Source: Tubulanus polymorphus | Taxonomy: Eukaryota > Animalia > Nemertea | Assembly: GCF_964204645.1 (NCBI RefSeq) | Contig: NC_134025.1 | Coordinates: 8,742,001 to 8,806,000 of the forward strand | Length of the DNA: 64,000 nt | Direction: 5' to 3' | Shown here: positions 14,455-45,974 of the stretch, in pieces | Numbering within the stretch: position 1 is the stretch's first letter | Layout: every line of letters starts with the position of its first letter | Position numbers and translations under genes: made by a program | The notes under the pieces: model-generated | Seen by the model: the letters and a program-made list of their open reading frames with translations, nothing else | What the model was told of the DNA's origin: nothing | Databases searched by the model: none

Positions 14455-14649
14455 GAAAGGTGTTAAATGATTGTTGAAAGCCCTTGAAAAAGTTAATTTC
14501 TTCTGTTTAAATATTTCACTTATCGTCTATATCAGAGTATAGTAGCTCCATATTGGAAAGGTGTTAAATGATTGTTGAAAGCCCTTGAAAAAAATTATTT
14601 CTTCTGTTTAAATATTTCACTTATTGTCTATATCAGAGTATAGTAGCTC
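14455..14649. repeat. Two-copy direct tandem duplication, period about 101 bp
   Basis: GAAAGGTGTTAAATGATTGTTGAAAGCCCTTGAAAA...ATCAGAGTATAGTAGCTC occurs at ~14455 and ~14556 with few mismatches. Confidence 0.85.
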
Positions 14650-15918
14650 AAATATTCTTTGAAATGAAGATAGTTTACCTTTGTTTGAATTTTGTCAATT
14701 GGTCGTTTTTTGTCAAAAGTTTATCAGCATGTTTATCACTACTATCCAGGTATATTTATCTTGTTGTATACCACCGATTAGCATTTAAACCTATCACAGT
14801 CAACCCAGCGGTTTTACGCACAATATTTTTGAATCCCATTTACAAAACCTTAGTTCATTGTAAATTAGAATGATGTTTAGTTAGATATCTAGCGCCTTTC
14901 GTTTATCCGGCACGGGAGGGTTCAAATTGTACGTTGGCCGATTATGCCATCTTTAACCACCCTCCCCCTTGTATGATCTTAGTACTGGTAATTAATTTAT
15001 CGACTCCCCATGACAATGCGTGATGACAATCCCTCATCTACCTTCAAATTCAACATGATAACGTCAGGACTTCGATAGCCTAATGATCAGTACCCAATGA
15101 AACAATTGATCAGATCTCTCAGATGTGATCTACGCTCTCACATTGCTTTCCCTGATGCGGAGGATTTTAATTTCATTTACTATGAAGAAGGATAAGAGTG
15201 TTGTGATGGGTGAACTGTAATTTATCTTTGGATTAAGAGATTTAACATTCTTTTCTAACCCCTCCATTCCGCACATTTGAAGTTAGTAAGTACTGGGGAG
15301 AATTTTTATCCCCCTTCCCAAAAATAATACGTACTATTCAAGAATTTTTTGAGTTGACTCCTGGCTGTGTACATAATTATTATCTGTTTATAAAATAAAT
15401 ACATGTTCCAGTCAATGATTTCTCCGGCTTTTCTTATTTATAGTCGTAACACTGCAAATTTCTGTAGTCAAATGTCTAATTTAGCAACTGTCAGTATAAA
15501 ATCCTTCAGCAAGATCAAGGCTCCATTACTACATTTTATCTGCATGTCATCTCTCTGTTGGATTTTGGATTTAAGTTGAAAAGTGGTTCTAAGCATGTAA
15601 GGTACCAGTAGTTGGGATTGAGGTTTACTGACACCGTCGTCCGCTGGGGCCTACATGTATTTTGTCGATTTGACAGGATATCTTCATATCACATTGAGGA
15701 TGCAAAATACGATGTAAAACATGAACAATACATTTATTCAGGGAAGTATGTATATTTTTGAAAGCTGTGACTAATCCAAGCATTAATCAAGTTATTCACT
15801 ATCCATAATACCAGGAATGCAAATTCTACTGTAGACTCTGCCTTACACACCAGTCAGTAAAATTTTCGGAAATATCTCTGACTTGTTATTCGCCAAGTAC
15901 ATGGCACTATATTGTTTA

Positions 15919-18256: not shown

Positions 18257-18522
18257 TTGCATCAACCTGAAACCCAGTTGGCGGACGATGTTACTGAAAT
18301 AACACTTGTTGACCAGCAGCAGATGTAACATTTGTGAAATGTAAAAAAAGTTTGCGAACAATGTTGACCGTCTAGTGCTGCCCCTATGTACAACGATAGC
18401 GGGGAAAATGTGAACTAACGTAATACTCGCTTGCCAAAGTGGTTGCCTGCCCCGCCGGTAACCAGTCTAACAAACTATTTACCAGGCCAAGAAAATCCTC
18501 GGACTCTTAACAGCAACAACTC

Positions 18523-18654
18523 GGCCCAGTTTCACAAAAAAGTTAACTCAAATTTTTGGTGCAATTGCTATTAGTTACTTCATGTTTTCAATGAGGAAGG
18601 ACAACATTCAAACTTAACCGTTTTCGGCTTAAACTTTTTCGTGAAAATGGGCCC
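18523..18654. mobile_element. Short MITE between NSUN6 and the poly-TIR gene
   Basis: TIRs GGCCCAGTTTCACAAAAAAGTT / AACTTTTTCGTGAAAATGGGCC. Confidence 0.65.
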
Positions 18655-19070
18655 TTGATATTATTTCAAACTTAGAATTAGATAGATAGTAAAAAATAGT
18701 ACCTGCATCGGGGTACTTCTATTTTACTTGAGGAGAGGGGGGATGGGTGTTGATTGGCTCAGTCACCGCTACGACCGCGTGTTTACATCATTTAGTTTAT
18801 GTCTCGCCATTGCAAGAACTCGAGCCAATCAATTTATTATGAATCGCGACAACTCGGAACTGTTAACCAGCCAAGTGCACTCATCTGTTGTTAGAAAATG
18901 AAAAAAACATTTGACGCTGAATGCAGTGTCCGCATTAGCTAGTGTTTTTGATAATTCTCAGTCTCTAATTTTTCATTCTTTAGTCATATCATGTCTACAT
19001 CGATCATAATCACGCACTTCATGCGGGCGAAAAAAATCGAAACGGCGGGATGCACCGAACAACTATTTTT

Positions 19071-19385: not shown

Positions 19386-22300
19386 ATGTCGAAGCCAATA
19401 CCACCGCGATCCCGCAAATCGTATCAGCGCATGTTATCCTACGAGCATTGGTTTAACGAATCTGACAAGAAAGGCCCAGTAGTTAGCAGCGAAGATTATT
19501 TTTCGTCTAAGGATGTAGCGCGTTTATGGGTGGAAACACGCCGAAAAGACCTATTGCTGGCGCTCGGCCTGCTGCAAATGTATCCGAGTTTGATACAAGA
19601 TGAAGCGATGGACGACGTTTGGAGGTATCTGAAACCGTATCTGCGCGATGAATATCAACGGGAACCGCACGGTTTGTCCGATGATGAGGATTTATCTGAC
19701 GAAGAGGATGAACTTTATCACCAAATGTTCAGCTGTCCATCACTGTATATATGCACCGACCACAGCCTAGATTCTTCGAAAAGCGACGGCGATGGAGCCG
19801 AAAATGTTGATTCAACAATGCTGAGACCTATTACCGCGTGTCTTTTGCCATTCTTCTTTGTGCATCTTGGCCCAAATGTTTCAGCCGAATCGGACGAAAT
19901 CGATGGTGAATTTTCAAAATTGTGTTCTAGTATATCCGATGCGGATGTCTTTATATTCATTGCAACCGAACGATCTCTGAGAAATCAACACTGTATAAAC
20001 GCCATATGTATTGCCCAGTTCTACGACATTCCGCTGATCATGATAACAGAAACTGGGTTTTCTTTGCCTACGGACTGCGCTAGACCAACCGTTTTGAAAT
20101 ATCTGGGAGTCGACACATGTTTGGATACCAAAAACGAGGAAGAGTACATGGAATTACTATCCGATGGTGAAGATGACTCTTTTTTCATCACAGAACTCAA
20201 GACAACACTTTCGCTTCTCAGTGAAGTGTCGCTTAGCGGCGAGGCAATAGGTTTAGTGGATTTGAAGCGGCTCTTACTGCTAGCACACTCGGAAGCAATT
20301 ACATATGATCTACAATTTCATAAAGGATCAATTTTGCATTTGTACGAACGCTTGCAAGTATTTCTCGGAGGAAAAGCGAAAGAGATACGAAATTATCTAA
20401 TAACTGATACATCAGAGAATTCTGACCATGCTGAAACGAAGTTGATGGCTGAAAGTATGGAGCAAGTTCCACTCCGGGGAATGCTCCGAAGAGGACCCAG
20501 TGATGAATCTGGTAAGCATTCCATTTTCATAAATTAAGTTTCGATTTTTATCTAAAAAAGCAGTTTTTTCTTAGTAAAGGGTAATTTTTTTCAGAACGTT
20601 TACGAAAATACAAATCTTATAGACTTTTGAGACTGTTTGAAGAATTGCGGAAACGTGATCTACCATCTGGAGTTTTCCCTACGTTTTCTGGCGCCCAAGA
20701 CTGGATCGAGCGGCACAAGGATGATCTTTTGATTGGTATGAAACTTTTAAGATATTACCCTGAATTGAAAGATGACGATCTATTCAGTAATATTTGGCAG
20801 TTTTTAGAACCATTCATAAAGCAGGATTGTTTTTGGCAGCAGTATGCCGAGGAGGATACAGGCCGACAATCACCTTTTCGTCTTCGAACACCTATGCCGC
20901 TTCCAAGTGTACGTAAAGGTATTCCCGTAGTTTACATATCAGGCGAGAATGAAGATATAGATGTACTTTCAGCGAAATCCATCAATCCTGATGAAGGTGG
21001 CCGTAAAACATTGGAAGAGATCTCACATTCTTTACTGCCCTATTGTTTTGTTCACGTGGGACCGTCGATAGGTGAACATAATATGAGCAACTATTCGGAA
21101 ATGTGTTCTCGTATCATAAACTGCGACTTGTTCATTTTTATGCTGAACAATGGATCCCTAAATGTTGATAGTTTATGCGCGCTGGAAATTGCTCGTCATT
21201 ACAATGTGCCTACAACTTTTATCAAAGAACTCAAATTTTGCGTCCCTACTGAAGTGGTAAAACCACGACTGTCGGCTTTCCGTTTGAAAAGCAAAGTGAT
21301 TCCACAAAGCCAAATCGACGCTTTGGCCAGCGAAAAACCTATTTGTAGGAAATATGGAATAAGCGCTCCGACGGAACAGTTTGATCGTTTGAAACATAAT
21401 ATTGCTTACGTCACTGATTATGAGAAATTACCGGATGACGACGAAAACAGCATTCATAAAATGTTGTTGGATGCATCAAAAACTGCGATGATCTATGAAA
21501 GTTTAGACTACGAATATTCGACGCAGATGCTGTATAAACATTTGTCGAAAATCCTTGGAAATATTTTCCCGATAATCAAAAACGACGTGCACGAGGTCTC
21601 TGGTGATCCTTCGGATGAAGTTTATGAATTTGAAGCCGATGATGATAAAAATGAATTTGAAATAGTACAAGACATCGGTAAGTTCCGTTCACAAAAAAAT
21701 AAACTGTAGTCAACTGTATCACTTATGTATATGTTTAAACCATTCCAGCTCTAATGATCTTAAGAACTGCCTAGTGATCATACGAAAAAATAAAACACGC
21801 TTGAGTTTCGACTTGTATAATCTATTGGTTTTCAGAAACCCACTCGCAGGCTGAACACTTGACGAAATCATCCTTGCCATCGACACCAGAATTCCCTTCA
21901 CTAAGTGGCGCTCAACAGTGGCTGATTCGACATCGTGACGACATCAATATAATGGCAAAACTTCTCGGAATTTACCCTAAATTGATTGCTGACCCAAAAT
22001 TAGATCTACTTTGGGAAGCAATAAAACCATACCTCCAAAAACAGTATCAAGACATGCGAGAGATTATGTCCTACTTGACTGTCGAAACTGATGAAAATAT
22101 GGTTGCTGACTTCCCCGGAACAACATATTGTATTCCAATGATTTTCATGTGCGGAGATTCTGATGATATATCGGCATTGAGTGAAAATAGGCTCGTAAAT
22201 GAAACTAGCGAAGTCGTACAATTGATGTCACTATCTTGCCTATCATTTAGCTACGTCCACAAGGGAACTGCTTCTCCTGGTTCAGCAGACGATTACGCTG

Positions 22301-25300
22301 AATTGCGCGGTCAAGTTCTAAACAGCGACGTATTCATTTTCTATGCATGCAATGAGTCTTTGAAAAATGATGATTGTTTGAGAGCAGTGAGTTTTGCCAT
22401 CATGTACCGAATACCGATGATCTTAGTCAGAGATTCCAAATTTAATTTTCAAGATGAAATATTAGAGAATGGCCTGATGATATTCGATAATGACATGAGA
22501 GCAGCCATGTTGGATTGGTTCATCTCTGAAAACAATGATGCCGTTGTATGGAATAGAAACTTCTATTTGCCTAGCATTCTACGTCTTTATGCCAAATTGA
22601 CGCACTATTTGGGCGAGGTATGTAAAGCAAACCAACAGAAGTTAGTTGAATATATGAAATCCGGACCAGAAATAAAATCCAGGTCATCAATCACTCGGCG
22701 AAAAAGTAGTACAGATTTGATGGCAGTAAACCGAAGACCGGGCCTGAATATCGACGATGCCTTTCTTCCACTGATCAGAGAAGAATCGGGTGTATTGACA
22801 AGACCTTCGACACCTGTTACCCCTACCGAATCAGATGACGATGATACGTCTAAACATAAAATTCTTATTCGTAAAGAATCGAAAGCTGTACTTAGTGCTC
22901 TTCATAGCAGAATCGGTAATGTATTATCATGTAAACATTATGAATCAAATGGTTTATGATCAAATTATATTGCATCTGATATAAGTATTCTAATAATCAG
23001 GATGCCTCATTTACAACGCAGTTAAACCTTAGTTATTGATTCAATTGTCTTTCAATTTGATCTCATTTATGTATTCATATTTGTTGAAGTGTATGCATCT
23101 TTTTCTTGCTTCAGACGTTGGTTATAGACGTGCCTTTACATCTATGAAAGAATACGACGCTTGGAGAACGAAAGAAGTTCCACTGGGTACGTTCCCTAGC
23201 TGCGAAGGTGCGCAGAAGTGGATCGAGTGCAGAATGGATGACATCAAACTCGGAATTCAATTGTTCAAGAAGTACCCATGCCTTATACTGGAACCACTGG
23301 TTGATGACGCATGGAATGCTGTTGCTCAGTATTTAATTGATACATATCGCTATCGCCGGACCGAAACCTGGCGGTATAGATCCGACTTGGAAAACCACAC
23401 GCCATACGTACCTTCTATTTTCATCTGTCGCGACGGTTTCGACGTCGTTGATGTCATTACGAATTCGCAGCGTGAAGTAAATGCAACTTTAGATAGAATG
23501 GTGAAAATTCTCTCGCAGTTTGGATTTGTGCACTCCGTACCCGTATTACCGATTGGAAGTGATAGCTACACAGCAATCGCTAGCAGAGTCGCCAACAGTG
23601 ACGTGTTCATTTTCGACTTGAACGAAAAGACTCTGAAGAACCAGCACAGCATTACTTCACTCGCAACGGCAGCTTTCAACAGAACACCCATTATAATGCT
23701 CAGGGAGTCGAAATTCCAGCTTCCCGATATTTTCATTCAACCAAATATACAACGAGAACTTTCCAAGACGAAACTAAGACGGCAAAGTACTCGGTCGAAA
23801 TTAGTTCGTCGCCAGTCATCGTTTACCATGTCCGGAGTGTCGGATCGACCAAATGTAGATATTGAAGAAATCATTAGGTCTGGGTATGATGACGCACTAA
23901 TCTACTACCCATCATTTCATTTGTCTGTACTATTACAACTGTATGACAAGTTAGCGTTGTATCTCGGTCCGATTTGCTTACAGACGAAAGATAGATTAAT
24001 GAAAATGTACGACGAACAGTTCAATAACGAAGATGAAAGCGATTTTCAGATTGTGGAGGATAGTGCACACATTGCTGCTCCTCTCCACCGAGTACAGATC
24101 TCTATAGATAATGACGAGGCCACACGATCGTCCGAGGATGATGGTAAAATTCTAGACCATGATCTTAACGAGACGATTAGAGATGATCTGAGTAGTTTCA
24201 ATGATATGCGTGTCTCTAACGATATAGCTTCTGAACCTTGCACGGCCGAACTAATGAATTCGAGCGCTGACATCATAGACAACGGTGACGAGGCATCGCA
24301 TAACGATAGCGATGAACATTTTTCATCCAGTTATGATGTTGAGGAAAATGGACGAAATCTCTACAGTGAGCAAACAAATCTCGGTAAGCTTGATCGTATG
24401 GATAGAAAAGAATCTAACATTCAAGATGAATGAATTGAATTGTAAATAATTTTTGTGAACATCATCAACTACATGTATGTACGCGTATGCTTATTCGGGT
24501 TACATGTTTATCGTTTTATAGATAAAAACACTGATCAAGAACAATTGAAATCACTCGATGAACAATCATATTTTCGAGTACGGGAGATTATATCAGACGG
24601 ATGGCAGTCTGATGATGAAGATTCAAGAGCTGGTAGTATAATAAATCTGATAAATAATGAAAAACTGTACACTCCACCTCAATCACCCTCACCGACAGGT
24701 AAATACTCTTCGGCATCATAACCTCTCTATATCTGTTATTTCATGAATAAAAAAGTTTGAAAACTAAAACGATTAAAGATGAGACATCGGCATGGTCAGT
24801 TACATACATGTATGTATTTTCTGTAGCGTGCCATTGTAGTTAATCAAGATGGCAAATTAATTAACGAGATCAATACCTCCTATACCGCTCGTTAGCTACA
24901 CAGCTTCACTATTATAGATGATAATGATACACAGTATCAGCTGGAGCTGGAGGGCGTGTCAGGTATTTTAAATAGACTATTGCATTTTGTATTGATCATC
25001 CGTGTTCTATCTACTTAATCCAGAACAAACATTGAATGACGCGCTCAAACAGTCTCCCTCACGTTTGCCATACGACGAGGACAGACTCGAAGGAATTCAG
25101 TTCAGAGCAACGGTTCGACAGCCATCGCTCGACGTTACGAATACAACTATCAATATTGGATATACAGAACTTCGCAACGATGCAAGTACATTTGACATTG
25201 ACGTTCAAGGCTGCCTTCTCAAGTTAACGAATGGAGACGTTCGTGATAGAAGATGCGCGTCAGAGGAGTGGCAAACTGATGACGAAAGAAGCACTGCAAG

Positions 25301-28300
25301 TATAAGTTCAGTTTGGCCAAGAGAGCCATCGCTTCCAACCGAAGACCATCCGTCGTCTACAGGTAAGTTGAAAAGAAAAGTCAAACAATTTAGATTTTAT
25401 GTTCATCGATAAATCGATTGATAAAAGCAATGTAGCAGTATAGATCTACTAAATATTTCAATGATGACATATCTCAGTATTTGGCAAAAATTACATGAAA
25501 TTTATGGGTGATCTGATAACGTTAAACTCACATTGAAATGAATACGTTTTTGAATGGTTACTTTACCAGATATGGATACCGAAAAAAAAAGAATTGATGA
25601 AGTGATGACGAAATTTTCAAGTGCCGATACGTTAATACCTGTCCAGCAAAAGTGTGAAACGAATGACCTTCTTCAATATTCTGATAAAGAAGAGAATATC
25701 TCTGAGTTCAATATGTCTGGGAAACGATATGGCGAAAGCAAATGTGCATTCGAAGATTTAGAACACAAATGTGACGTGAAAGATTTGATAAATATGAAAG
25801 ATGAAACACAAGTTTCGATCAATGATGACACGATGGGAATCGACAGGAATGATATTTATCGTGAAGTTGGAAGCTATCAATCGCAAGAATCTGTAATCAA
25901 TGGGAATGAATGTGTAACTGCTCACGAAATTGAAAAACGCTCAAGATTATCTGGTGATAGTGTTAATTTGAATACAATTTCTAGCATTAGCGAAAATTTA
26001 ACAGATCCGCTAAAAGGCGTTGCCGAATCTTGCGTCAGAGAACAGAAGATAGAATTCGTTGACGATCTTATTTTCATCGAAGTTGAAACACCAGTCGAAC
26101 CTTCACTCATGCTCGGTGCGTCGGACGTAGAATTTGATACGATGAAAAGTGATTCCGTCAGGCACAAAGTAAGTAACATCGATGGGATCGATGAAGAATC
26201 TGCTATGGATGACGTCGATAGAAATGTAGTATCGAAGAATCAACGTGAAACAGGAGAAGTGAGTGACATGCCAACAGATAGCGGATTAAAATCTGAAGAT
26301 GATGCCTCCGTTTTCAAGGCAATCGATACGGCTGATGAAATGGACGATAATTTGTTCGGATCAGGAGAAGAGAACGGCGCAAAGTCAACTAGCAAAAATA
26401 AATTGGAACGAAGTGACTCGTCTTATTCTGACGTTATGTCGCATAATATTTCAGAAAAGTATGATTTAGAAGAAAACGAACCTACAGGCGACGGGGAAAG
26501 CATAGAAAAAGTATTGGAGAAGGATTTTCTGACTGATGACTGCAAAGGCAAGTTAGTTGAAGATTTATCAGATGAATGTAAGCACGTAACGGGGACACAA
26601 GATATGCACAGTTTTCAGTTATCGCACAATGATATATGCGATGACAAGGAACTAAGCGGTCACTCGATAATCAGCAAACAGTCAGCATCATTTGTTATTT
26701 GGAATGATCATTCACGGGCATCAGATATCAATGATTTTGCTGAAAACTACGTACGGAATTGGAGATCTGATGAAATTGCTGATACTAGACAAATGTCTGA
26801 AAACTCATTAAAAGTTGCCATAAATGAATGTAATTCGCTAGAGAATATTCCAAAAATATCCGACGAAATTGTTGATAACTTTGATACTGATTCGTTGGAA
26901 AAAGCAAGACTTTCGGCTTTCTCAGCGAGCACCGAAGGTGGCAAGGACTGTTTGTATTTCGACAACGATTCTCTCGAGGAATTACCTATGAATAATCATC
27001 ACTTACACCAAGTATTTGGATTATCAAATCACAAAGGTTTGTTTAGCTTTCATATTCATCCTGCAAATCTAAAATCTACAGTGGTGTCAAAATATGTTTC
27101 AAATGTCAGTTTCAGGTTCCAGTAACTCACAACTTGAATGGACAGATAAATCCATTGCTAAAGATTGGTTGTGCAAAAATCAAATGTACGTCACGAAAAC
27201 AATGGAAACTCTAAACAGATATCCAGACTTACTCGATGATATCGGCATGAATGGTTGGAACATAACAAAAAAGCCTAGCAATAGCTCTGTAGGTAGGCCA
27301 AATGTCTATCTATGCGGTTACGACAAGGCTTTAGATCCAAAGATGCCAATAATGTTTCAGCAACCTAAAGCGCTGGATCAAATAACCAAAGCATTAACCC
27401 CTTATTGTTTTGTTCACCATGGGCCACCACAAACTGCAAATACCAGCGAACAATTAAAGGATTTGGTCGAACAAGATGTGTCGAAGTCTGATATTTTCAT
27501 ATTTTATCGCAATGAATTTTCATGTATCGATCCTATTTCCCTTTATGCCCTGGCACTTGCTGAAGAATATAAGAAGAAAGTATTTTACATTTCCGACAAG
27601 GAATCAATGGTCATCGGGAAAACCAATAAAAAAGTGATCGATACCAAGACTACAGTAGACAAGGAGATAATGGAGTTAGATTATGTTGTGAGTGACCTAA
27701 GGGAAGAATTAGAACAAATCAATGCAGACTCATTCCTGCATGAAAACGGTACATTGGATTTTGAAACACTGAAGGCGTTTCACAATGCTTTAAACAGTTG
27801 TTTAGATGGTTTATTTGATCTAGAAGAGGAAAAGATAAGAAATCTATTCGACGAAGGTTGCTTAGCAGATTCACGGAATGATGAGGAAAAAAAACTGAGA
27901 AATATCCCCCTGATCCACGTTTGTATGGGAGAACCAAACATCACAATTGCGTGCGGTGACTCTAACCTTCCTAAGGGGATAGAAAAAATACTTCGCGTCC
28001 TAGCCCCGTACTCTTATGTCCATATTGGGCCGACGTACGGTGGATTCGGCGACGACAGGGAGAAATCATATGCTTCGATCTGCGAAAGTGATTTAATGGT
28101 ATTCGTTATGAACGACATGAATCTCGTCAGTCAGGCGAGCATTAATACTCTCTACTACGCTTATGGGCAATCCTTGCCGATCATTTACATCAGAACTCCG
28201 GAATTTGAACTGGACGAATGTGCGTCTCCAGATTTATATGAATTACGCGAACAGCCAGGATTTAAAAGTGACATCAACATCATAGATATCCTTTCAGAAG

Positions 28301-31300
28301 GTCATTCAAATGCTGTTGTATACGATATCAAAGCAAATGCGGATTCATTGGTTACGTTCATGGAAAAGGTGGCAGATGTCTTAGGAGGAAGAATGGAAGA
28401 TATTTTGATGGATGTTAGAATTGCAGCAGAAATAAACAATTCAAATGCTCTGATGGCAAGTTCTTCGTCACTGAGGTGTTCGGAGAAAATCGAGGCCATG
28501 TATTCAGATCTCGAACATCTAACGCACGAGGAAAGAGTACAAAGAATATCTGCAGGTAGAGTTAGTTGTGTCATAATGGCACTCTCATATATTTTGACAT
28601 TACATTATCTAATGGGACTTTGTTTCATGTTGCCTTCTTTATTTCAGTTACCCCGAATTTGCCTATGTCAACGCTTGATGCAATCGCCTGGCTCGAATCC
28701 AAAGAGAGAAACAATGCTATATATGAAGCAATCCTTACAGACCACGAGGAGTTACTCGGTCATTCGTGTTTATGGGAACTACAGAACATTTTCACGAATG
28801 CCAAAGAAAGGAAAGAAAAATTTGGTAAACTTGATCGTCCTTTAGTAATAATTTGTGCAGAAAACCTCAGTGAAATTCCAGGTTCGGAAGAAATGCTTAG
28901 TTCCATATTACCACACGGCTTTGTACACATCGCGTTTCAAAATCAGTCTAAAACGTATCCTAATATTGCTGATGTTCACCTACTTGTTTTCTTTATGGAC
29001 GAGGCATCCTTGAATAACCAGAATTGCATAGACATGCTATGTTTAGCAAAGTTTTATCTAATTCCAACCACATTTATTCGCAAAGCCGACTTTGTGCCCA
29101 ATAGCTGGTTGCCTCCACAGATAAGTGTTCTGCCCAGAGGAGGAAGCAAATCTCACTTTGATGAGATAATTGATGTTATGCAAATTGTAATGGATGGATT
29201 CGAAAATTCTACAGTATATGTTGATTATCTGGAAGAAAAAGCTCTGTATGAATGGGCCAATATGATTCCCATATATATGCTTGGCAAAGATGTCTTTGAT
29301 TCATTGCAACAACTTTTCGATCGTAAAGTGTTCAAAGAAAAAAGAATTTCGCTAAAAAGTAAGATATCAATTTTCAGCCGTAGTTTTAAAGGTTGTGCCT
29401 TTCTAATTTGAATCAATGAAATAATTTTACCAATTGCAGACCTTCCTGAATATCCTTTAAATGAAGAGGACGCAGAACAATGGCTATTCTCAAAGCAAGA
29501 GGAATTACCGATATACAAGTCTATTTTCGAAGAACATCGATTTCTTTTCGAGAAGTCACCTTTCGCATTCTTCACAGAGCAGTTTAATTCATTTTCGCCA
29601 CATGATAATGGTGGCCAGAATGTGTTTATATGTCACAATGAAGAACGAGAATATATAAGAGAAATTATTTCGCAATATGCCAGGGTCAGTTCAATATCCG
29701 TGAAAGATGGTGATGCTTTATGTGTTAAGGAAGACCGGAAAATCACGAAAAATGATCTCCTCATATATTACATGAATGAACAAACTCTCAATTGTCAGAC
29801 TACGATCAATATTCTTGGTCTGGCCAAATATTATGGATGTAAGATATTTTTCCTCCGTGAAACTACATTTGAACCAGTGGAATACATTTCCCCGGATATT
29901 TACTTACTTCCACCAGATGTAGATCAAGATAGATTTAAGAAATTCGTTAATATTGGCGAAATTATGTTAGATGGCCAAGAATCTGCGATACAGTTTGACA
30001 AAATTGTCGAAACGAGTGCCCTTGGTGTTGTTGCCCGTCATATAGCGCCGTATTTTGGAATATATGTCGATGAACTATTACCAAAGATCCCGAAGAATAT
30101 AAGTGACACCAGACATTCAGATAATCATCCCGAAAATAACGCATCTAAAATTTGTTCAGATATTGAACAAGCTCGTAACTGGCTGATTTCGAAAGAAGAT
30201 GACATCTCGACCCTAAAAACAGTATTAACCGAATTCCCAGAACTCAAAGTCGAAATATACCTGTCAGATTTATCTCACATTTACAAGAGTAAGGATGATT
30301 CTGATGTAGACATAAAAATGACAGCTCGACCTGACAAAGTTCTTATGTGTTGCGACGAACTGAAATCGAATGAAAATTGTATAAGTCGAATTCTTGCGAA
30401 TAATTCTTTTCTACAAATTTCAACCTGTGATCGACCAATTCAGACTGATATTTATAAACAAATATCCACCACAAACCTTTTAGTATTTTTCATAAGTGCA
30501 AAAACTCTGAATGATCAGAATCACATAAACCTGCTATGTCTAGCTCAGTATTATAATATCCCGACGATATATTTGATGGAAAGTGGTTTCGAACCAGAGG
30601 ATTGCACGTCACCAGATGTATCTATGTTACCAAACGACGTCGATCAGGAGCGATTCACCACCGAAATCGATATCGGAGAAATCCTCACAAATGGAATGGA
30701 TTGCTGTATCGAAATTACGAAACGAATTGATGAGAGCACGTTGGATACGATAGTGAAACGGCTATCGGCATCGCTTCATCTCGAGGACTTCAGTTTGAAA
30801 AACTTCGTACCAGAAGAAGATGTGAATATTGATGCTTGTACTTCGACTGCTGATCTAGAAAGTGATAACGATGCCACTTCTGAAGGTAATACGACTAAAT
30901 TTTCCCTGGGGTCTTGACAGTGCAATGGGCCTGTATCTGAAATTTCCTCATGAACTAAACTTCATTATTTATTTAAGATTGGCCCGATTTAAGAAACATT
31001 GACGATGCTCGAAAATGGATCGTTTCCAAAGAAACCGATATTCTAATCATGAAATCAGTTATCGAAGAATTCGGGGAATTAAAAGCTGAAACATGTCTGA
31101 AACATTTGCCTGGATCCTTCAATACAACGGTTGAAAGTGTAACTATGATTGATGGTCATTCGTCCACTGATAATGCCGAATATATTCACAAAAGTGTCAT
31201 GACAGGTAACCATTGAAGAGCTTTTTGATGGTGTTTAATTTTGTCCCATTCACATTGTTTAATGTGTTCTATTTGCAGAGTTTCCAAGAACCTTTTCCGA

Positions 31301-34300: not shown

Positions 34301-37300
34301 CCAGATGTACTCAATATTGATGCTGGTGCTTCAACTCATGAAGAGGAAACATGTCTGAAACATTTGTCCGAATCCTTCTATACAACGGTTGAAAGTGTAA
34401 CTATGGTTGATGGTCATTCGTCCACTGATAATGCCGAACATATTCACCAAGGTGTCATGACAGGTAACCATAATATTCAAATCTTTAACAGCTTTTTGAT
34501 GGTGTTTAATTTTGTCCTATCAATCTAATCTTTCTATTTGCAGAGTTTCCAAGAACCTTTTCCGATCTCGAAGAAGCTCGTGACTGGGTGAATTCTAGAG
34601 CAGATGATATCTCAATTATGAAATCTATAATGACTGAATTTACTGAACTCAAAGACGATTCATGCTTGAATGATCTATTAGTATCTTATCAGACTCAAGA
34701 AGAAAATCACTCTGATACAGACATCAAAGAAGGTTCTGATACAGAAGCTAAGATCAACTTACAATCTAACAAAGTTCTGATGTGTTGTGATGAACTGAAA
34801 TCGAATGAAAATTGTATAAGTCGAATTCTTGCGAATAATTCTTTTCTACAAATTTCAACCTGTGATCGACCAATTCAGACTGATATTTATAAACAAATAT
34901 CCACAACAAACCTTTTAGTATTTTTCATAAGTGCAAAAACTCTGAATGATCAGAATCACATAAACCTGCTATGTCTAGCTCAGTATTATAATAACCCGAC
35001 GATATATTTGATGGAAAGTGGTTTCGAACCAGAGGATTGCACGTCACCAGATGTATCTATGTTACCAAACGACGTCGATCAGGAGCGATTCACCAGCGAA
35101 ATCGATATCGGAGAAATCCTCACAAATGGAATGGATTGCTGTATCGAAATTACGAAACGAATTGATGAGAGCACGTTGGATACGATAGTGAAACGGATAT
35201 CGGCATCGCTTCATCTCGAGGACTTCAGTTTGAAAAACTTCGTACCAGAAGAAGATGTGAATATTGATGCTTGTACTTCGACTGCTGATCTAGAAAGTGA
35301 TAACGATGCCACTTCTGAAGGTAATACGACTAAATGTTCCTTGGAGTCTTGACAGTGCAATGGGCCTATATCTGAAATTTTCTCATGAACTGAACTTCAT
35401 TATTTATTTAAGATTGGCCCGATTTAAGTAACATTGACGATGCTCGAAAATGGATCGTTTCCAAAGAAACCGATATTCTAATCATGAAATCAGTTATCGA
35501 AGAATTCGGGGAATTAAAAGCTGAAACATGTCTGAAACATTTGCCTGGATCCTTCAATACAACGGTTGAAAGTGTAACTATGATTGATGGTCATTCGTCC
35601 ACTGATAATGCCGAATATATTCACAAAAGTGTCATGACAGGTAACCATTGAAGAGCTTTTTGATGGTGTTTAATTTTGTCCCATTCACATTGTTTAATGC
35701 GTTCTATTTGCAGAGTATCCAAGAACCTTTTCCGATCTCGAAAAAGCCCGTGACTGGGTGAATTCTAGAGCAGATGATATCTCAATAATGAAATCTATAA
35801 TGACTGAATTTACTGAACTCAAAGACGATTCATGCTTGAATGATTTATTAGTATCTTATCAGACTCAAGAAGAAAATCACTCTGATACAGACATCAAAGA
35901 AGGTTCTGATACAGAAGCTAAGATCAACTTACAATATAACAAAGTTCTTATGTGTTGCGACGAACTGAAATCGAATGAAAATTGTATCAGTCGAATTCTT
36001 GCGAATAATTCTTTTCTACAAATTTCAACCTGTGATCGACCAATTCAGACTGATATTTATAAACAAATATCCACAACAAACCTTTTATTATTTTTCATAA
36101 GTGCAAAAACTCTGAATGATCAGAATCACATAAACCTGCTATGTCTAGCTCAGTATTATAATAACCCGACGATATATTTGATGGAAAGTGGTTTCGAACC
36201 AGAGGATTGCACGTCACCAGATGTATCTATGTTACCAAACGACGTCGATCAGGAGCGATTCACCGGCGAAATCGATATCGGAGAAATCCTCACAAATGGA
36301 ATGGATTGCTGTATCGAAATTACGAAACGAATTGATGAGAGCACGTTGGATACGATAGTGAAACGGATATCGGCATCGCTTCATCTCGAGGACTTCAGTT
36401 TGAAAAACTTCGTACCAGAAGAAGATGTGAATATTGATGCTTGTACTTCGACTGCTGATCTAGAAAGTGATAACGATGCCACTTCTGAAGGTAATACGAC
36501 TAAATGTTCCTTGGAGTCTTGACAGTGCAATGGGCCTATATCTGAAATTTTCTCATGAACTGAACTTCATTATTTATTTAAGATTGGCCCGATTTAAGTA
36601 ACATTGACGATGCTCGAAAATGGATCGTTTCCAAAGAAACCGATATTCTAATCATGAAATCAGTTATCGAAGAATTCGGGGAATTAAAAGCTGAAACATG
36701 TCTGAAACATTTGCCTGGATCCTTCAATACAACGGTTGAAAGTGTAACTATGATTGATGGTCATTCGTCCACTGATAATGCCGAATATATTCACAAAAGT
36801 GTCATGACAGGTAACCATTGAAGAGCTTTTTGATGGTGTTTAATTTTGTCCCATTCACATTGTTTAATGCGTTCTATTTGCAGAGTATCCAAGAACCTTT
36901 TCCGATCTCGAAAAAGCCCGTGACTGGGTGAATTCTAGAGCAGATGATATCTCAATAATGAAATCTATAATGACTGAATTTACTGAACTCAAAGACGATT
37001 CATGCTTGAATGATTTATTAGTATCTTATCAGACTCAAGAAGAAAATCACTCTGATACAGACATCAAAGAAGGTTCTGATACAGAAGCTAAGATCAACTT
37101 ACAATATAACAAAGTTCTTATGTGTTGCGACGAACTGAAATCGAATGAAAATTGTATCAGTCGAATTCTTGCGAATAATTCTTTTCTACAAATTTTAACC
37201 TGTGATCGACGAATTCAGACTGATATTTATAAACAAATATCCACCACAAACCTTTTATTATTTTTCATAAGTGCAAAAACTCTGAATGATCAGAATCACA

Positions 37301-40300
37301 TAAACCTGCTATGTCTAGCTCAGTATTATAATATCCCGACGATATATTTGATGGAAAGTGGTTTCGAACCAGAGGATTGCACGTCATCAGATGTATCTAT
37401 GTTACCAAACGACGTCGATCAGGAGCGATTCACCGGCGAAATCGATATCGGAGAAATCCTCACAAATGGAATGGATTGCTGTATCGAAATTACGAAACGA
37501 ATTGATGAGAGCACGTTGGATACGATAGTGAAACGGATATCGGCATCGCTTCATCTCGAGGACTTCAGTTTGAGAAACTTCGTACCAGAAGAAGATGTGA
37601 ATATTGATGCTTGTACTTCGACTGCTGATCTAGAAAGTGATAACGATGCCACTTCTGAAGGTAATACGACTTAATGTTCCTTGGAGTCTTGACAGTGCGA
37701 TGGGCCTGTATCTGAAATTTTCTCATGAACTGAACTTCATTATTTATTTAAGATTGGCCCGATTTAAGAAACATTGACGATGCTCGAAAATGGATCGTTT
37801 CCAAAGAAACCGATATTCTTATCATGAAATCAGTTATCGAAGAATTCGGGGAATTACAAGCTGAAACATGTCTGAAACATTTGCCTGGATCCTTCAATAC
37901 AACGGTTGAAAGTGTAACTATGATTGATGGTCATTCGTCCACCGATAATGCTGAATATATTCACAAAAGTGTCATGACAGGTAACCATTGAAGAGCTTTT
38001 TGATGGTATTTAATTTTGTCCCATTCACATGGTTTATTGCGTTCTATTTCCAGAGTTTCCAGGAACCTTTTCCGATATCGAAGAAGCTCGTGACTGGGTG
38101 AATTCTAGAGCAGATGATATCTCAATAATGAAATCTATAATGACTGAATATACTGAACTCAAAGACGATTCGTGCTTGAATGAATTATTAGCATTTGATC
38201 AGACTAAAGAAAATGACTCTGATACAGACATCAAAGGAGGTTCTGATACAGAAGCTATGATCAACATACAATATAACAAAGTTCTTATGTGTTGTGACGA
38301 ACTGAACTCGAATGAAAATTGTATAAGTCGAATTCTTGCGAATAATTCTTTTCTACAAATCTCAACTCGTGATCGACCAATTCAGACTGATATTTATAAA
38401 CAAATATCCACCACAAACCTTTTAGTATTTTTCATAAGTGCAAACACTCTGAATGATCAGAATCACGTAAACCTGCTCTGTTTAGCTCAGTATTATAATA
38501 TCCCGACGATATATTTGATGGAAACTGGTTTCGAACCCGAGGATTGCATGTCACCAGATGTATCTATGTTACCAGATGACGTCGATCAGGAGCGATTCAC
38601 GAGCGAAATTGATATCGGAGAAATCCTCACAAATGGAATGGAATGTTGTATTGAAATTACTAAGCGAATTGACGAATGCACGTTGGATATGATAGTTAAA
38701 CAGATGTCAGCGTCGCTTCCTCTTGAGGCCTTCAGTTTGGAAAACCTCTTACCAGATGTACTCAATATTGATGCTGGTACTTCAACTCATGAAGAGGAAA
38801 CATGTATGAAACATTTGTCAGAATCCTTCTATACAACGGTTGAAAGTGCAACTATGGTTGATGGTCATTCGTCCACTGATAATGCCGAACATATTCACCA
38901 AGGTGTCATGACAGGAAACCATAATATTCAAATCTTGAACAGCTTTTTGATGGTGTTTAATTTTGTCCTATCAATCTAATGCTTTCTATTTGCAGAGTTT
39001 CCAAGAACCTTTTCCGATCTCGAAGAAGCTCGTGACTGGGTGAATTCTAGAGCCGATGATATCTCAAATATGAAATCTATGATGACTGAATTTACTGAAC
39101 TCAAAGACGATTCATGCTTGAATGATCTATTAGTATCTTATCAGACTCAAGAAGAAAATCACTCTGATACAGACATCAAAGAAGGTTCTGAAACAGAAGC
39201 TAAGATCAACTTACAATCTAACAAAGTTCTGATGTGTTGTGATGAACTGAAATCGAATGAAAATTGTATAAGTCGAATTCTTGCGAATAATTCTTTTCTA
39301 CAAATTTCAACGTGTGATCGACAAATTCAGACTAATATTTATAAACAAATATCCACAACAAATCTTTTAGTATTTTTCATGAGTGCAAAATCTCTGAATG
39401 ATCAAAATCACGTAAACCTGCTCTGTCTAGCTCAGTATTATAATATCCCGACGATATACTTGATGGAAACTGGTTTCGAACCCGAGGATTGCACGTCACC
39501 AGATGTATCTATGTTCCCAAACCACGTCGATCAGGAGCGATTCACCAGCGAAATTGATATTGGGGAAATCCTCATAAACGGAACCGAATGTTGTATTGAA
39601 ATATCGGAGCGAATTGACGAAAGCACTTTGGATACGATAGTGAAACAGATATCGGCATCGCTTCATCTCGAGGACTTCAGTTTGGAAAACTTCGTACCAG
39701 AAGTGAATATCGATGCTTCTACTTCCACTGATGATCTAGAAAGTGATAGCGATGCCACTTCTACTGGTGATGGTAGTGTATATTTTTAAAGCTTTCATAC
39801 TTAATTCAAAGAATACACAAACGAATATCCCTTAAACTATTCTATTTGTTTCTGTTTTGCAGAAATGCGCCTAGAAATCAATGGCATCGATGATGCTCGA
39901 GAATGGATCATCTCAAAAGAATCAGATATTTTGATAATGAGATCTATCATCAAAGAGTTCGATGAATTAAAAGATGTAGCATGTTTGAAAGATCCAACTG
40001 CCTTCCACAATTCAAAAGACGAAAGTGTTGTATCTATGGTTGATGGTTATACGTCCACTGATGATGCCGAATGCACACACAAAGGTGTCATGACAGGTAA
40101 CTGGTTGTCATTTTCATGTGAAATAGCGGCACTTTTTTCTCTGTTATGAATACATATTCGTACATCTTTTCTAGAAATTTATCAAACATTCTGTAACGTC
40201 GCTCGTGACTGGGTGAAATATAGAAAAGATGATATATCAACAGTGAAAACAATCATGACCGAATTCAACGAATTAATCGAAGAGACATGTCTTAAAGATT

Positions 40301-43300
40301 TGGACGATTATTTTTGTCTCAGAAGAGACATTGACACCGTCGATATTTGTACCTCAACTGATATAGAATATTCAGATAAGGCGATTTCAACAGGTAAATG
40401 ATACAACCTATTCAAACATTTTAATATTTCTTGATTATTGACTATATTTCTTGTATTGCTTTTTCTTTTATTCATCTATACAGAGTTTTGCCAAGAATTC
40501 AACACAATCAATGACGCTCGAGAATGGATCATTTCCAAAGAATCGGATCTTTCTACCTTGAAAACCGTTACCTCGAAATTCAGTGAACTTAAAGATGTTG
40601 TCATTTTGAGAGACCTTTATGAATCTGTTTACAACCCAAAAGAAAATATCACCGATGCATTTACTTGTACTGACGAGGTGGAACATGAAAATAAGGCAAT
40701 TTCAACTGGTAAAAACTACTAAGAACTATACCTTTTAAATAACTATTTGTATTTTGTATATATCCGGATGAAAGATCCTAATTCTTTCCTTTCCAGATAC
40801 GCCCATGCCAACGGAAGAGAATAGACATTTGGATAGTAAAGTTCCCCTTGTTGCGATAGGAAGTCAATTTCTGTACCCATCATCACTTGACATGAGTGCG
40901 TCGTCAAAAGAAACTCTAGATCGCATTTTGACGCCTGTTTTGCCATTTTGTTACGTGTTTAGCACATCAGCTCCAATCACCAACAGTGAAGAGTTATTAA
41001 TGTTAATTGAGAAAATTCGCAACTGCGATATATTTATCTGTCATCTCGATGATGAGTATATTTACTCCCAATGCTGCATAAACTCCCTGGCACTTGCGGT
41101 GTTTTTCGACCGGCCTGTTATCATGATTCGCGAGCCTCTGTTCACCCTACCGAAATCGCCTTATCAATCGTTGCAACCGAACGTAATCGAATTTCTCACC
41201 GAGACAGCAGGCAAATATGAAAGTGACATCTTAGACTTTGTTCGCGATAATTACCAAAAAAAGGTTGGAGATTTCAATGACGTGTTATCACGCGGTGCAG
41301 ATTCTGCCTTGATTTACGATGCCGGTTTTGAGGAGATGTTCACGCTGCGTCTATACGACTGCATGGCTAACTTTATCTCGGATGACGTTTTTAAAGCTGG
41401 TGTCATAAGTGCACGTCAACGGATAAATACGTGTCGTGAGTATCTGTTTGAGAAGGAACCTACCGAAGCTTCGATTAATAGTTCTATTTTCGAAGACGAC
41501 GTCCGTAATTCCCTCGAGTTGACGCCGGATTCGGTCAACGCGTTGTCGACAACTTTAGATGTCGACGCAGATACATCAACCCACCCTTCAATATACGTTC
41601 AAACGGATACTGAAGTTGACACCGCAATGATAAGCAAACGTGAGTCTTCGACTATGCTAATTATAGATAACGGATCTATCGCAAATGTACGGTATTTTCG
41701 ATTAAAAAAGCTGATATATGTCGTGTACTTGATACGGTCCCATGGAGAGCACTTGGATTCAAATTTCTATTTCGATACACCATTAAGCACACCAAAGATA
41801 AAATGCAATAATTCATGATTTCAAAATTATATTGAAAAAAATAATTTCTCCGGACGGGACGTTATCATACCTTCAAATGAAAGGGCAGCCATTTGTATAG
41901 ACGGTAAGTATGTTAGATAATGCGCATGTAGTAACCTTAAACATTTCTTGTGTCTTTTTTGCCAGCAAATGATACACGTGAATACCGACCACTACGCACA
42001 GCCATCAGCCAAAAGAATTTCGACGATGCATTCAGGGAAGAATTATCTGGTGTCATCCCGACGTTGAATGGAACCAAGGAATGGTTTAGACGAAATGATA
42101 GTGTCTTTTTAACCGCAAAAAATTTATTGCTTTGCTACCCCGATATCATTGAACACGATAATGCGACTATGAGAAATTTGCAAAAACTAGTTAGCATTAT
42201 TGAACTGAAAGAATGCAACACTACAGCCCCAGATTCTGGTGTCGATTTACAATCGGATTCTACTCGTCCTATACCAGTTTTACTGATTTGTTCTGCGGAA
42301 AAGATGGATAATTCGGAATTTCACCTGAGAAGAACTGTCAGCTTTCTCAGCTCTCAAGCTTTCGTTCATGTAATGCCGAACGATTTAGAAGAGCAGTCGA
42401 CAATAACCGATTCTGTTCTAGGTGCAGACGTTCTAGTTTGTTACTTTAGTCAACGTTTTATGAAATCGCAAACCTGCGTTAGCACCCTTATCGCTGCCTC
42501 TTTCCACAATGTTCCGATCGTACTTGTACGCGGCGAACTTCAAGAATTACCGGAAGATCTATCGTACTCACAGGTTTGCTTTGAAAAGGATAATTCGAAT
42601 AAGATGTGTGAACCAGACGCAAGCAAAATTCTTCTGGACTTATGGGATACGTCAGCTTTGATACATCGTGATTTTTATTCTTCGATTGAGTCGGTGTGTA
42701 AAAGGTTAGAACCTCTTGTCGGGAATACCTTCAAATCCTTAGAAATGGAAAAATTAGACAAGGATGATGGAAACTTGCAGTCACTGAGGAGATCCAGTGA
42801 ACCATTCGTTTCATGGGCAGACGGTAGAAGGAAAAGAAAACTAGGTAGGTTCATTCTCTTATGTATGAATTACTATAGAGATAGATCATCGTGTAAATTT
42901 CGTACATATTTCCTATACATACCATTGGGAATATACTCTCGAGATGTAACGTTTCTTTGTGTGTGAATTCGCTATTCGCTGCGAAATGTTGATTAATCTT
43001 TATTTCATTTTTTTTTCATTTTCCTAATCAAAGGTTCATTGAAAGGAAATGTCATTTTCCATTCTTTAAGAGAATATAAGGATGCTGAGATAGGTATTTT
43101 TCCAACCTATGAAGGTGCCAAAATATGGCTTCACAGACGTGCGTTTGATATGGCAGTAACAGCTAATCTTTTACGAAAATACAGAAATTTAGCGGATGAA
43201 CCTGAACTTGCTGGTTTTTGGGACGTAATCAATTCCCATTTCGATAAGAACATCGAGGAAAAACGAGGTTATCCCGCACTCTTCAAAATTAATTCGTCTC

Positions 43301-45974
43301 CGTTTACCACACCACAAAGCTGTCCGACCCCTTTGATCTATGTCTGCGGAGATGCGACCGTGTCAGTAGAAGATGTTAAGAAATCGCGAATGACAATCAT
43401 AGACCGGATAACAAAATCACTTCTTCCGTTTTTCTATATCCACCATGGCGCATCGCTACCGACGGATGACGACGAAGTTCCGGATATTTGCTCTCGCATC
43501 ATGAACAGCGACGTTTTCATGTTTTATTTGAGCAGGTATACGCTTGAAAATCCATCATGTTTAGAAGGCTTGTGCGTCGCGATTCATTACAAAGTTCCTA
43601 TACTGATGATAAGAGAACCGAGATACAAATTACCGGAAAAGCTACCTGAATGTGAAGTTCTACAGAGACTGCGAGGCAGTATAAACGTCAAGTCTATTGA
43701 CGATGAGCTGGAATTGAATGATGTTTTACGGCTTGGACATGCGGAGGCAATAGCCTACGTTGGAGAATACCACCATGCCGGGATCGCTAGGTTATTCGAT
43801 AGATTAGAACGGTTTTTAGGAAGTGATTTCAGGGACTTGAAATTCAGATTAACGAAATACGTAAAACAGGATAGAATTCGACGAAAATTGTTGTTTAAAG
43901 AAGTTCAGCATGATTCAACACGCAAAGACAATGTCACCAGCGATTTATTTCAATATGTGACTGATTCGAGCCATTCGACTGATATAATGCACCATTCATC
44001 CCATGATATAACTCCGATTTCCATTTTGGAGGTCACCGATAAAACAGACAACGTCTTAGATGAGATAAAAACAAAGATTTCGATCAAAGATGTTGGGACG
44101 ATGACAGATCCATTAGAAGGTAACCATTCACTAAGAAATTGAAAATCATTCTTTAGATAAAAATGAATTCTCTTGTGGGCTTCTTGTTATATTCGTATAT
44201 TAGGGTAGATTTTATAATTTCCGAAATCATTATTGGTCGATCGATTTTGTTTTCAGTTGCTTCGAAATTTGACATACAGTATTGCCAGACGGATCGAGCA
44301 TTCAAACTGTGGCGAGACGAAGAACTCCCCTCTGAAGTTCTGCCAACGTTCGATGGCGCTCAAGAATGGTTCAGAAGACATCGTGATGATGCAAACCTGA
44401 GCCTCATGTTATTGCACGCGTATCCGGAACTCATTCTCGATGCGAGCATGGAAAAAGCTAAAGAATTCCTGCTTCCTTTGTTAAACGAACTTACAAAGGT
44501 CACGGCCATTGACTCCAAAAAGCACCAACTGAAATCATCACGCACTGATAAGATTCTGCAGCCTTTTAGTTTGTTGACGCCGTATGTTTATGTTTGCGGC
44601 GATGAATCTGATGTCACCACTATCACATGTGAAACCAGTATAACTCCAGTTACGCGATCGTTACTACCTTACTGTTACGTACATTTGGGTCCGGCTTTAC
44701 CCCCGTTTGAAAACAAATATTCCGAAATATGTTCCCGTATTATCAACAGCGACGCATTCGTTTTTGTCGTTAAAGACGAAACGTTAAACAGCCAGTTGTG
44801 TATAAATGCACTAGCGATGGCGGCATTTTTCGACATTCCTATAATAATGTTCAAGCCACCGCATTATAAACTTCCTTCGCGATATGTCCGACCAAACATT
44901 CTGTTAAACAACAGGAAATATCGTAGCAGAAACGATGGTTTGGTCGATCAGACCGATTCTGTTGCCAGGCCCCCGACACCAGTGTTTATGGACGAAGAAA
45001 TCATCGATATAGGTTGCGTATTAGCGAAAGGTCTCGATGAGGCTATCACATACACACATGGATTTAGTGTACAATGTATACTAAAACTGTACGACCGATT
45101 ATCAATTCATTTTGGAGAAACGTTTAAATTTGCCCAGAACAAATTACGTTTTCGTTCCGGTTCCGAAAATTCTAAGGAAATTCGGCGATCATTGTCAGTA
45201 GAAACTGCAAGAGCAAAAAGAGAAAGCGGCCCGAAGTTGCCACCAATTATACAAACTAAGTTCCTCCACGATCCGATTACGCAAGTACACCTCGATTCCT
45301 CATTTCCAACAGGTGGAACGAGACTATTTGAAGATCCTACGATTGTAAACAGCTCTTTCGATTCGGGTTCGTTAGAACTACCCATACTACGTCCCATTAT
45401 CAGTGGACGTGCCATGGGGAAAAAGAAAAGAACGAAAAGTAACAAATCTAACGTTTGCGAACAGAGCGATAAAGGCGTCAAAAGTGATCCGAAGAATGAC
45501 TCTAATAAAAGTCTGGAAATCAAAGGTACTAAAATTTTTCCATCGCTGCACAAGGCGAAACAGTTATTCAAACGTCCAATACTTCCGAATGTGAATAATA
45601 TTGGCCGAATTTCATCAGTCGACACGAGATCATCCGCCGATACCCAGTCTATTCTAAATAACACTATGGGTGACGATTCTGTCTTCCGTTCACCGAGAAG
45701 ACGGCGACCTCAAGACGCGAAATTCAACAAGCAAATAAAAAAGTCGCGGGACAACATCCGACCATCGACGAAAGACACTAAAAAGACTGTGTACTTACTG
45801 CATCGGGGTAAGGACAGGATGGATACGAAACTGATACCGTGGCCACCTACTGATGAAACATGGAAATACCTTGAAGACAATGTTGTCGATCCGTGGCGTA
45901 GCACTCCTATAAATTTCGATTCAGTATGCTTAGATCCAGATATTTTACAAAGCACTGATACAGACCTTCAATGA
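19386..45974 (+). CDS. Uncharacterised giant protein (~7,700 aa, 32 predicted exons) with about 21 tandem TIR-like domains plus recurring helical modules
   Basis: Hand-spliced exons: 19386-20511, 20595-21677, 21836-22915, 23115-24383, 24522-24698, 24918-24962, 25024-25362, 25570-27036, 27116-28555, 28648-29358, 29440-30885, 30978-31205, 31279-32052, 32135-32362, 32441-33214, 33297-33524, 33603-34463, 34544-35320, 35413-35640, 35714-36490, 36583-36810, 36884-37660, 37753-37980, 38054-38914 (or 38902), 38996-39766, 39863-40096, 40175-40393, 40484-40708, 40797-41639, 41966-42844, 43034-44119, 44257-45974. All internal exon lengths are multiples of 3 and all introns are phase 1. Repeated motif: P-x-[IV]-[YF]-[IV]-C ... 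[FY]VH ... I-x-NSD[VL]F[IV]F ... [ST]L-x-N-x-x-C-x-x-AL-x-x-A-x-x-Y-x-IP[IT]I-x-[IL]RE-x-x-F-x-LP. Confidence 0.8.
30140..40096 (+). repeat. Recent intragenic tandem array of ~1.16-1.17-kb units (TIR-like exon + intron + 228-bp exon + intron), 9 TIR-like copies
   Basis: Near-identical ORFs at offsets of 1162 (32029 vs 33191) and 1170 (34588, 35758, 36928); the introns are also near-identical. Confidence 0.95.

Follow-up and report, generated by a model that had tools for sequence, protein, structure and literature searches.

The 64,000-nucleotide (nt) stretch of the nemertean Tubulanus polymorphus analysed here, hereafter the window (contig NC_134025.1, positions 8,742,001 to 8,806,000, forward strand), carries between 19386 and 45974 a predicted gene. 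Judged from its reading frame and splice sites, it likely encodes one giant protein of 7,708 amino acids (aa) in which a TIR-like unit recurs 21 times. The gene and its parts are as follows.

19386-45974, plus strand: the predicted gene, 32 exons, 7,708 aa, with 21 TIR-like units, 28 helical modules, an acidic linker and a basic C-terminal tail (splice model, profiles).
19386-24383, plus strand: exons 1-4 (19386-20511, 20595-21677, 21836-22915, 23115-24383), beginning with the start ATG at 19386; four old, deeply diverged units, each composed of helical module, TIR-like core and disordered linker (profiles, tree).
24522-27036, plus strand: exons 5-8 (24522-24698, 24918-24962, 25024-25362, 25570-27036), an acidic low-complexity linker of ~675 aa without a unit, the part in which exon choice is least certain (splice model).
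27116-30885, plus strand: exons 9-11 with five units, two in 27116-28555, one in 28648-29358 and two in 29440-30885; the second unit of exon 11 groups with the young array clade (profiles, tree).
30978-39766, plus strand: the young array, exons 12-25, in which eight TIR-unit exons (31279, 32441, 33603, 34544, 35714, 36884, 38054, 38996) are interleaved with six exons of 228 nt each which hold a helical module only (30978, 32135, 33297, 35413, 36583, 37753) (splice model, copy comparison).
38915-38916, plus strand: GA replacing the GT donor of the sister copies, intron 24 (window sequence).
39863-40708, plus strand: exons 26-28, three exons with a helical module alone (profiles).
40797-44119, plus strand: exons 29-31 with three old units, of which that of exon 31 scores highest on the family profile (122 bits) and has its core at about 43327-43821 (profiles, predicted fold).
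44257-45974, plus strand: exon 32, with helical module, TIR-like core, basic disordered tail and, at about 45777-45851, the C-terminal motif T-x-Y-L...P-x-L-I-x-W-P, ending at TGA (alignment to relatives).

The exon model was built from splice consensus over a run of long plus-strand frames (19383-45971) in the six-frame translation. Its 32 exons add up to 23,127 nt, i.e., 7,708 codons, and the sole stop stands at the end. Each of the 30 internal exons has a length divisible by 3, and phase 1 applies to all 31 introns. The introns measure 61-326 nt; 30 of the 31 are GT-AG, intron 24 is GA-AG. In a control with windows centred on the modelled sites and with array copies that are not independent, the modelled donor was the best consensus donor in 30/31 (-100/+60 nt) and the modelled acceptor the best acceptor in 28/31; the best site was in phase 1 in 30/31 donors and 29/31 acceptors. 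Reading through the introns meets a stop in 27 of 31. Introns 14 (32363-32440) and 16 (33525-33602), of 78 nt each, are open in frame, and their retention would not interrupt the protein. The model leads one to expect a product of ~860 kDa with a net charge of about -585, the last exon having +12.

The original prediction, made from the letters alone, had joined the open reading frames through GT-AG phase-1 introns, with one donor exception at 38915, into a single frame of ~7,700 aa. The exon model confirms this, and the exon starts named at the time all lie at real AG acceptors. We infer that a single mRNA spans all 32 exons. In a public DNA run, independent or possibly from the source sample, a single gapless contig covers 18617-30363 and differs from it in 3 letters. 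Summed contig depth in the same run rises from 42 to about 250, about six-fold, where the array starts, which fits a real multi-copy array. At intron 24 an in-frame GT donor exists at 38903, 12 nt upstream of the GA; thus the frame can survive via that donor or via exon skipping. Read-through of intron 24 would meet a stop at 38979 and yield a product of about 5,740 aa with 16 units.

A profile made from outside relatives only detects exactly 21 units in the 32 exon translations (independent E-values from 3e-12 to 2e-38), the same number as in the original count. Profiles of outside relatives plus a window-built profile detect 28 helical modules of ~50 aa (27 and one in exon 9). Nineteen precede a core and nine sit alone on exons 12, 14, 16, 19, 21, 23 and 26-28. 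Neither the helical module nor the acidic linker had been listed before. The earlier statement that NACHT and transmembrane segments are missing holds: the 32 exon translations have no Walker A motif (P-loop), and no transmembrane segment is predicted outside the unit cores, within which the most hydrophobic 19-mers fall (Kyte-Doolittle values up to 2.05). Pfam yields no domain at cut-off in the frames of the gene.

The unit has relatives in other invertebrates. A profile of 15 window units, run against 1.84 billion representatives, produced 192 matches at E≤0.001. Among the best 150 of these 192, 86 were kept as family (matches to the profile of window units reach E 7e-38), 44 are long and show canonical TIR motifs, and another 20, fragments or short matches, were left out. 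All 86 listed relatives possess exactly one core in a length of 180-722 aa. The helical module is present in 45 of them, and 62 carry, about 47 residues from the end, a C-terminal motif T-x-Y-L/I-x-F...P-x-L/V-V/I-x-W/F-P. In the predicted gene this motif aligns in exon 32 only (E 0.007 among 32 exons), with a weak score that does not rise above chance when the window is scanned in six frames. Because the motif is confined to exon 32, this exon looks like the whole ancestral protein, and exons 1-31 look like copies of its front half. A reading of the motif as an RVxF-like phosphatase-docking site is no more than a lead: the pattern fits 22 of the 62 relatives, and exon 32 fails it with a Pro at a forbidden place.

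Organisms are named in 9 of the 28 family clusters looked up, i.e., Patella, Haliotis, Littorina, Lymnaea, Sinanodonta, Watersipora, Holothuria, Auanema and Caenorhabditis angaria. These are molluscs, a bryozoan, a sea cucumber and nematodes. Examples are XP_050405039.1 (Patella vulgata), XP_067682090.1 (Haliotis asinina), XP_067941883.1 (Watersipora subatra), KAJ8044744.1 (Holothuria leucospilota) and CAI5446141.1 (Caenorhabditis angaria). A search with the Auanema protein returned 17 matches, 16 of them named and all of these from nematodes; three bear an automatic label (TIR, TIR-like or SEFIR). Within the family C90 is conserved in 81%, C161 in 68%, R/K179 in 95% and H232 in 53%. The helical module shows a weak resemblance to the dimerisation domain Pfam HipN, which 3 of 100 members matched at E 0.004-0.012 and 15.7-17.2 bits, below the cut-off of 23. 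A homodimer prediction for this module scored 0.01, in a run in which the alignment was not used and the fold was uncertain. Word-index protein searches (exon 31 against proteins of 500-2000 aa; alignment A3) gave no match, an uninformative result as the profile search does find relatives. A metagenome scan with exon 32 gave 158 pattern matches, none of them a relative.

The protein had not been recognised as a member of a described family. We found no publication on it; yet the unit is not an orphan but the N-terminal half of a conserved one-unit family. The literature search turned up neither this family nor any animal protein containing three or more TIRs; preprint supplements, such as the TIR tables of 10.64898/2026.04.20.719644, might list automatically labelled nematode members. 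Thus the 21-copy pseudo-TIR chain and its parent family, invisible to Pfam, appear to be undescribed. The TIR fold, chains of 2-7 TIRs and exon duplication as such are known.

The fold was predicted for the unit of exon 31; the TIR-like core of the other units is assigned by homology. With a 100-row alignment AlphaFold returned a model with a predicted local distance difference test (pLDDT) of 81.4 and a predicted template-modelling score of 0.70. It consists of a four-helix N-terminal module followed by five strands alternating with helices. A fold predicted from a single sequence reached a pLDDT of 41, and its structure matches were meaningless. When the model was compared by VIA-align with 48,161 chains the SARM1 TIR came first (Z 13.1, root-mean-square deviation 2.9, 126 aligned residues), followed by C. 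elegans TIR-1 (13.0), the RPS4/RRS1 TIR (12.6), IL-18R-beta (11.6) and Cat1 (11.4). MilB (11.0) and deoxyribosyltransferases (10.7 and 9.9) rank below these. Foldseek places TIR proteins at ranks 1-5, and the nearest ESM Atlas clusters are TIR_2 with scores of 0.93 and 0.90. The structure-match rows cover residues 81-253, i.e., the helical module is barely included in these searches. A profile-profile comparison gives a probability of 96.9% against TIR_2 repeats, gapless over 52 columns from alphaB to betaD; these repeats had been picked up by the same unit profile. Profile searches of PDB sequences produced no significant match, and Pfam TIR, TIR_2 and SEFIR match none of the gene's 19 window frames at E≤1 and none of 100 alignment members at E≤0.05. 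The unit is thus predicted to have a TIR fold, a five-stranded parallel, flavodoxin-like sheet, as the original prediction had it. Its label SARM1-type stands with respect to the fold and fails with respect to the catalytic residue.

Column 164 of the family alignment corresponds to the catalytic glutamate of TIRs in helix alphaC, which in the gapless 52-column alignment is kept in 88 of 89 TIR_2 repeats. In the predicted gene the position is filled by Ala, Ser, Thr, Met, Ile, Leu or Gly, and in none of the 21 units by Glu. Exon 31 has a Gly at 43567-43569; a Glu stands 1 residue off the column in exon 31 and 2 residues off in exon 2. The residues of the 86 listed relatives at this column include Gln (21), Leu (16), Asp (7), Thr (7), Ser (6) and Glu (5); the catalytic Glu is absent from 81 of 86. 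Glu or Asp is found in 12 (P0014, P0020-P0022, P0028, P0031, P0046, P0053, P0057, P0074, P0082 and P0114); these are candidates for active or ancestral forms. TIR catalysis strictly requires the glutamate, and most TIRs that lack it are scaffolds (10.64898/2026.04.20.719644). MilB/DNPH enzymes and TIRs use the same glutamate (10.64898/2026.09.21.753143). Because this residue is missing, the 21 units are likely pseudo-enzymes.

A quick tree of 100 cores, 14 of them window units, places these 14 in a single group (Shimodaira-Hasegawa-like approximate likelihood ratio support 97). In a careful tree, which has long branches, all 21 units separate from 12 relatives at 98/97. An approximately unbiased test on the placement of exon 32 gives an uninformative p of 0.29. 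The comparisons show, at the level of sequence, that all 21 units descend from one member of the one-unit invertebrate family. Twelve units are deeply diverged (0.6-2.9 changes per site), whereas the other nine, those of exon 11b and the eight array exons, are near-identical; hence at least two rounds of duplication took place inside the gene. Frames stayed open throughout. Among the eight array TIR-unit exons the synonymous differences per site (pS) are 0.007-0.20, the pooled ratio of nonsynonymous to synonymous differences (pN/pS) is 0.44, and no stops or frameshifts occur.

How does this protein compare with known systems? The one-unit invertebrate family shares with the predicted gene the TIR-like core, the N-terminal helical module, the C-terminal motif and a mostly missing glutamate; it has 1 core in 180-722 aa, the predicted gene 21 cores and 28 helical modules in 7,708 aa. 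The TIRs of SARM1 and C. elegans TIR-1 are the closest structural matches of the unit, yet identity is 12-16%, and the unit lacks the catalytic glutamate, has long insertions and matches neither Pfam TIR nor TIR_2. SARM1 proteins have ARM and SAM domains ahead of the TIR; by Pfam scan the predicted gene has none, its exons being made up of units, modules and linkers. The scaffold adaptors and receptors MyD88, MAL/TIRAP, TLR and IL-1R possess a TIR fold like that of the unit (Z 9.4-11.6) and do not rely on catalysis. They carry one TIR per chain and assemble upon stimulation (PMC8635717). The predicted gene differs from them by having no death domain, receptor ectodomain or transmembrane segment.

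Several TIRs per chain are found in likely bacterial multi-TIR_2 proteins, 3-7 in 13 of 13 scanned long matches, with a weak profile similarity to the unit from alphaB to betaD. However, these are canonical TIR_2 domains with Glu in 88 of 89 repeats, a C-terminal sensor domain and far fewer copies, and we take their origin to be independent of that of the predicted gene. In P0037, P0039, P0044, P0086, P0104 and others the 3-7 TIR_2 domains precede WD40, CHASE2, LRR or WG repeats. The tandem-TIR Toll-2 receptors of molluscs (PMC4929906) have a TIR duplicated within one animal protein as in the predicted gene, but they carry two canonical TIRs on a membrane-bound LRR receptor. TeTIR of TEP1, NWD1/2 and NPHP3 is another TIR-like domain of animals, divergent and extended, that escapes standard models, and that of NPHP3 lacks the glutamate as do the units; TeTIR has a NACHT ATPase directly downstream and an RWG loop, whereas the 32 exon translations contain neither Walker A nor RWG (10.64898/2026.09.21.753143 for TeTIR). 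Nucleoside 2-deoxyribosyltransferase, DNPH1 and MilB have a similar fold (Z 11.0 for MilB versus 13.1 for the SARM1 TIR), and their catalytic glutamate is absent from the units.

We propose, tentatively and at somewhat less than an even chance, that the predicted protein is a non-enzymatic, multivalent TIR-fold scaffold which binds other TIR proteins or itself. With the catalytic glutamate gone, the scaffold mode remains. TIRs that act as scaffolds or enzymes signal via weak, nucleation-limited head-to-tail assembly (PMC8635717). As TIR-TIR contacts are weak and need a high local concentration, tethering 21 copies would supply avidity, and no ligand would be needed to trigger assembly. In molluscs, a Toll that carries two tandem TIRs signals more strongly than one with a single TIR (PMC4929906). 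An ancestral N-terminal exon, phase 1 at both ends, would have been duplicated repeatedly, long ago and recently, with a single C-terminal tail left. The best-conserved end units (exons 31, 32 and 4) would keep the binding job of the family; the acidic, more degenerate middle units would contribute valency and length. Helical modules may associate with one another or serve as docking sites for partners; pairing in cis would go well with the way in which exons holding a module alone alternate with exons holding module and core. The original prediction had likewise suggested a pre-assembled TIR filament, scaffold or decoy, a role that stays hypothetical. The pN/pS value and the lack of a broken copy in the young array indicate coding constraint and speak for such a scaffold. 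A bolder version appears rather unlikely to us: a full-length 860-kDa chain of 21 dead TIRs would be a pre-built assembly that seeds or caps TIR signalling, e.g., by SARM1/TIR-1, and would expose a hidden invertebrate family of pseudo-enzyme TIR regulators that spans phyla.

Several observations weigh against a scaffold. Every named relative is "uncharacterized", "hypothetical" or automatically labelled TIR or SEFIR; no partner is known, nor any tie to immunity beyond the fold. No multi-unit relative from another species turned up in the searched libraries, where multi-exon giants would be split or missed. The fold claim is limited by the single unit that was folded, and with nucleoside deoxyribosyltransferase-type folds close behind TIR-type surfaces are unproven. 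The GA donor at 38915 may lead to a truncated or shortened product. A pN/pS of 0.44 is only moderate and compatible with relaxed constraint. Most middle units score 37-62 bits on the family profile, compared to 99-122 for exons 31-32.

Alternatively, the dead TIRs might act as a decoy or sink which soaks up or caps catalytic or adaptor TIRs such as SARM1/TIR-1, or pathogen proteins aimed at TIRs, so that signalling is damped and an arms race drives the growth in copy number. This we consider unlikely. The missing glutamate and the SARM1 TIR as the closest fold would suit it, as would an array that is very recent, still growing and rich in amino-acid changes among its copies; moreover, a constitutive seed would presumably be dangerous. 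However, with pN/pS below 1 there is no hint of positive selection, and the one-unit parent family is conserved across phyla, unlike immune families with a fast turnover.

Unlikely, too, is a runaway, nearly neutral exon duplication, in which the last exon does the ancestral job and the other units are tolerated passengers or an acidic spacer. Symmetric phase-1 exons throughout the interior are easy to duplicate, the central units are degenerate and acidic, a damaged donor persists at 38915, and exon 32 alone kept the C-terminal motif. Yet 12 unit lineages at about 0.6-2.9 changes per site have preserved both the core pattern and their open frames, and this takes purifying selection over a long time; the pN/pS of 0.44 in the young copies points in the same direction.

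Shorter products in place of a giant mRNA, by alternative starts, intronic polyadenylation, exon skipping or a division into several genes, seem quite improbable. AATAAA occurs in introns 2 and 5, symmetric exons permit any skipping, and the GA donor at 38915 fits as well. Against this, exons are separated by just 61-326 nt and their splice sites match; of the 31 exons that follow exon 1, 17 lack an in-frame Met both upstream and within the first 10 codons; and the C-terminal motif scores in exon 32 only, at the weak level stated above. Separate genes in particular are disfavoured by the short gaps, the matching splice sites and the many exons without a Met start.

A non-canonical nucleotide site of the TIR/nucleoside-deoxyribosyltransferase superfamily, i.e., a multivalent metabolite sensor or enzyme, is very improbable: MilB and deoxyribosyltransferases do rank close (Z 10-11), the family does keep C90, C161, R/K179 and H232, and Glu or Asp does occur at the catalytic column in 12 of 86 listed relatives or 1-2 residues off it in exons 31 and 2, but the glutamate used by TIR and MilB/DNPH enzymes (10.64898/2026.09.21.753143) is absent in 21 of 21 units and the 100-row alignment has no invariant polar residue.

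For the putative scaffold the 21 TIR-fold domains would far exceed the other counts found, two in mollusc Tolls and 3-7 in likely bacterial proteins. TIR signalling needs nucleation of weak contacts, and a chain of 21 TIRs would be a natural experiment on removing that barrier. Since Pfam TIR models miss the glutamate-less invertebrate family, surveys of annotated TIRs likely omit most of it. The Caenorhabditis members make the family testable; if its members are indeed regulators, genetic tests are possible in nematodes.

The poly-TIR gene is flanked in the window by the following features.

225-8019, minus strand: afadin-like gene; domains found are FHA and, twice, RA.
9995-13844, plus strand: MORC-like gene with GHKL ATPase and CW zinc finger exons.
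14446-14657: tandem repeat with 2.1 copies of a 101-bp unit.
About 15400-18105, minus strand: NSUN6-like RsmB/F methyltransferase, in head-to-head orientation to the poly-TIR gene, the ATG of which is about 1.3 kb away.
46570-50262, minus strand: SLC38-like amino-acid transporter, in tail-to-tail orientation to the poly-TIR gene, the stop of which is about 600 nt away.
56528-56755, minus strand: an exon that encodes an LDL-receptor class A repeat.

Two high-copy dispersed repeats lie at about 13990-14300 and 18360-18660, with bin depths of about 22,000 and 7,000 versus 42 (run X1). The latter sits between the NSUN6-like gene and the start of the poly-TIR gene.

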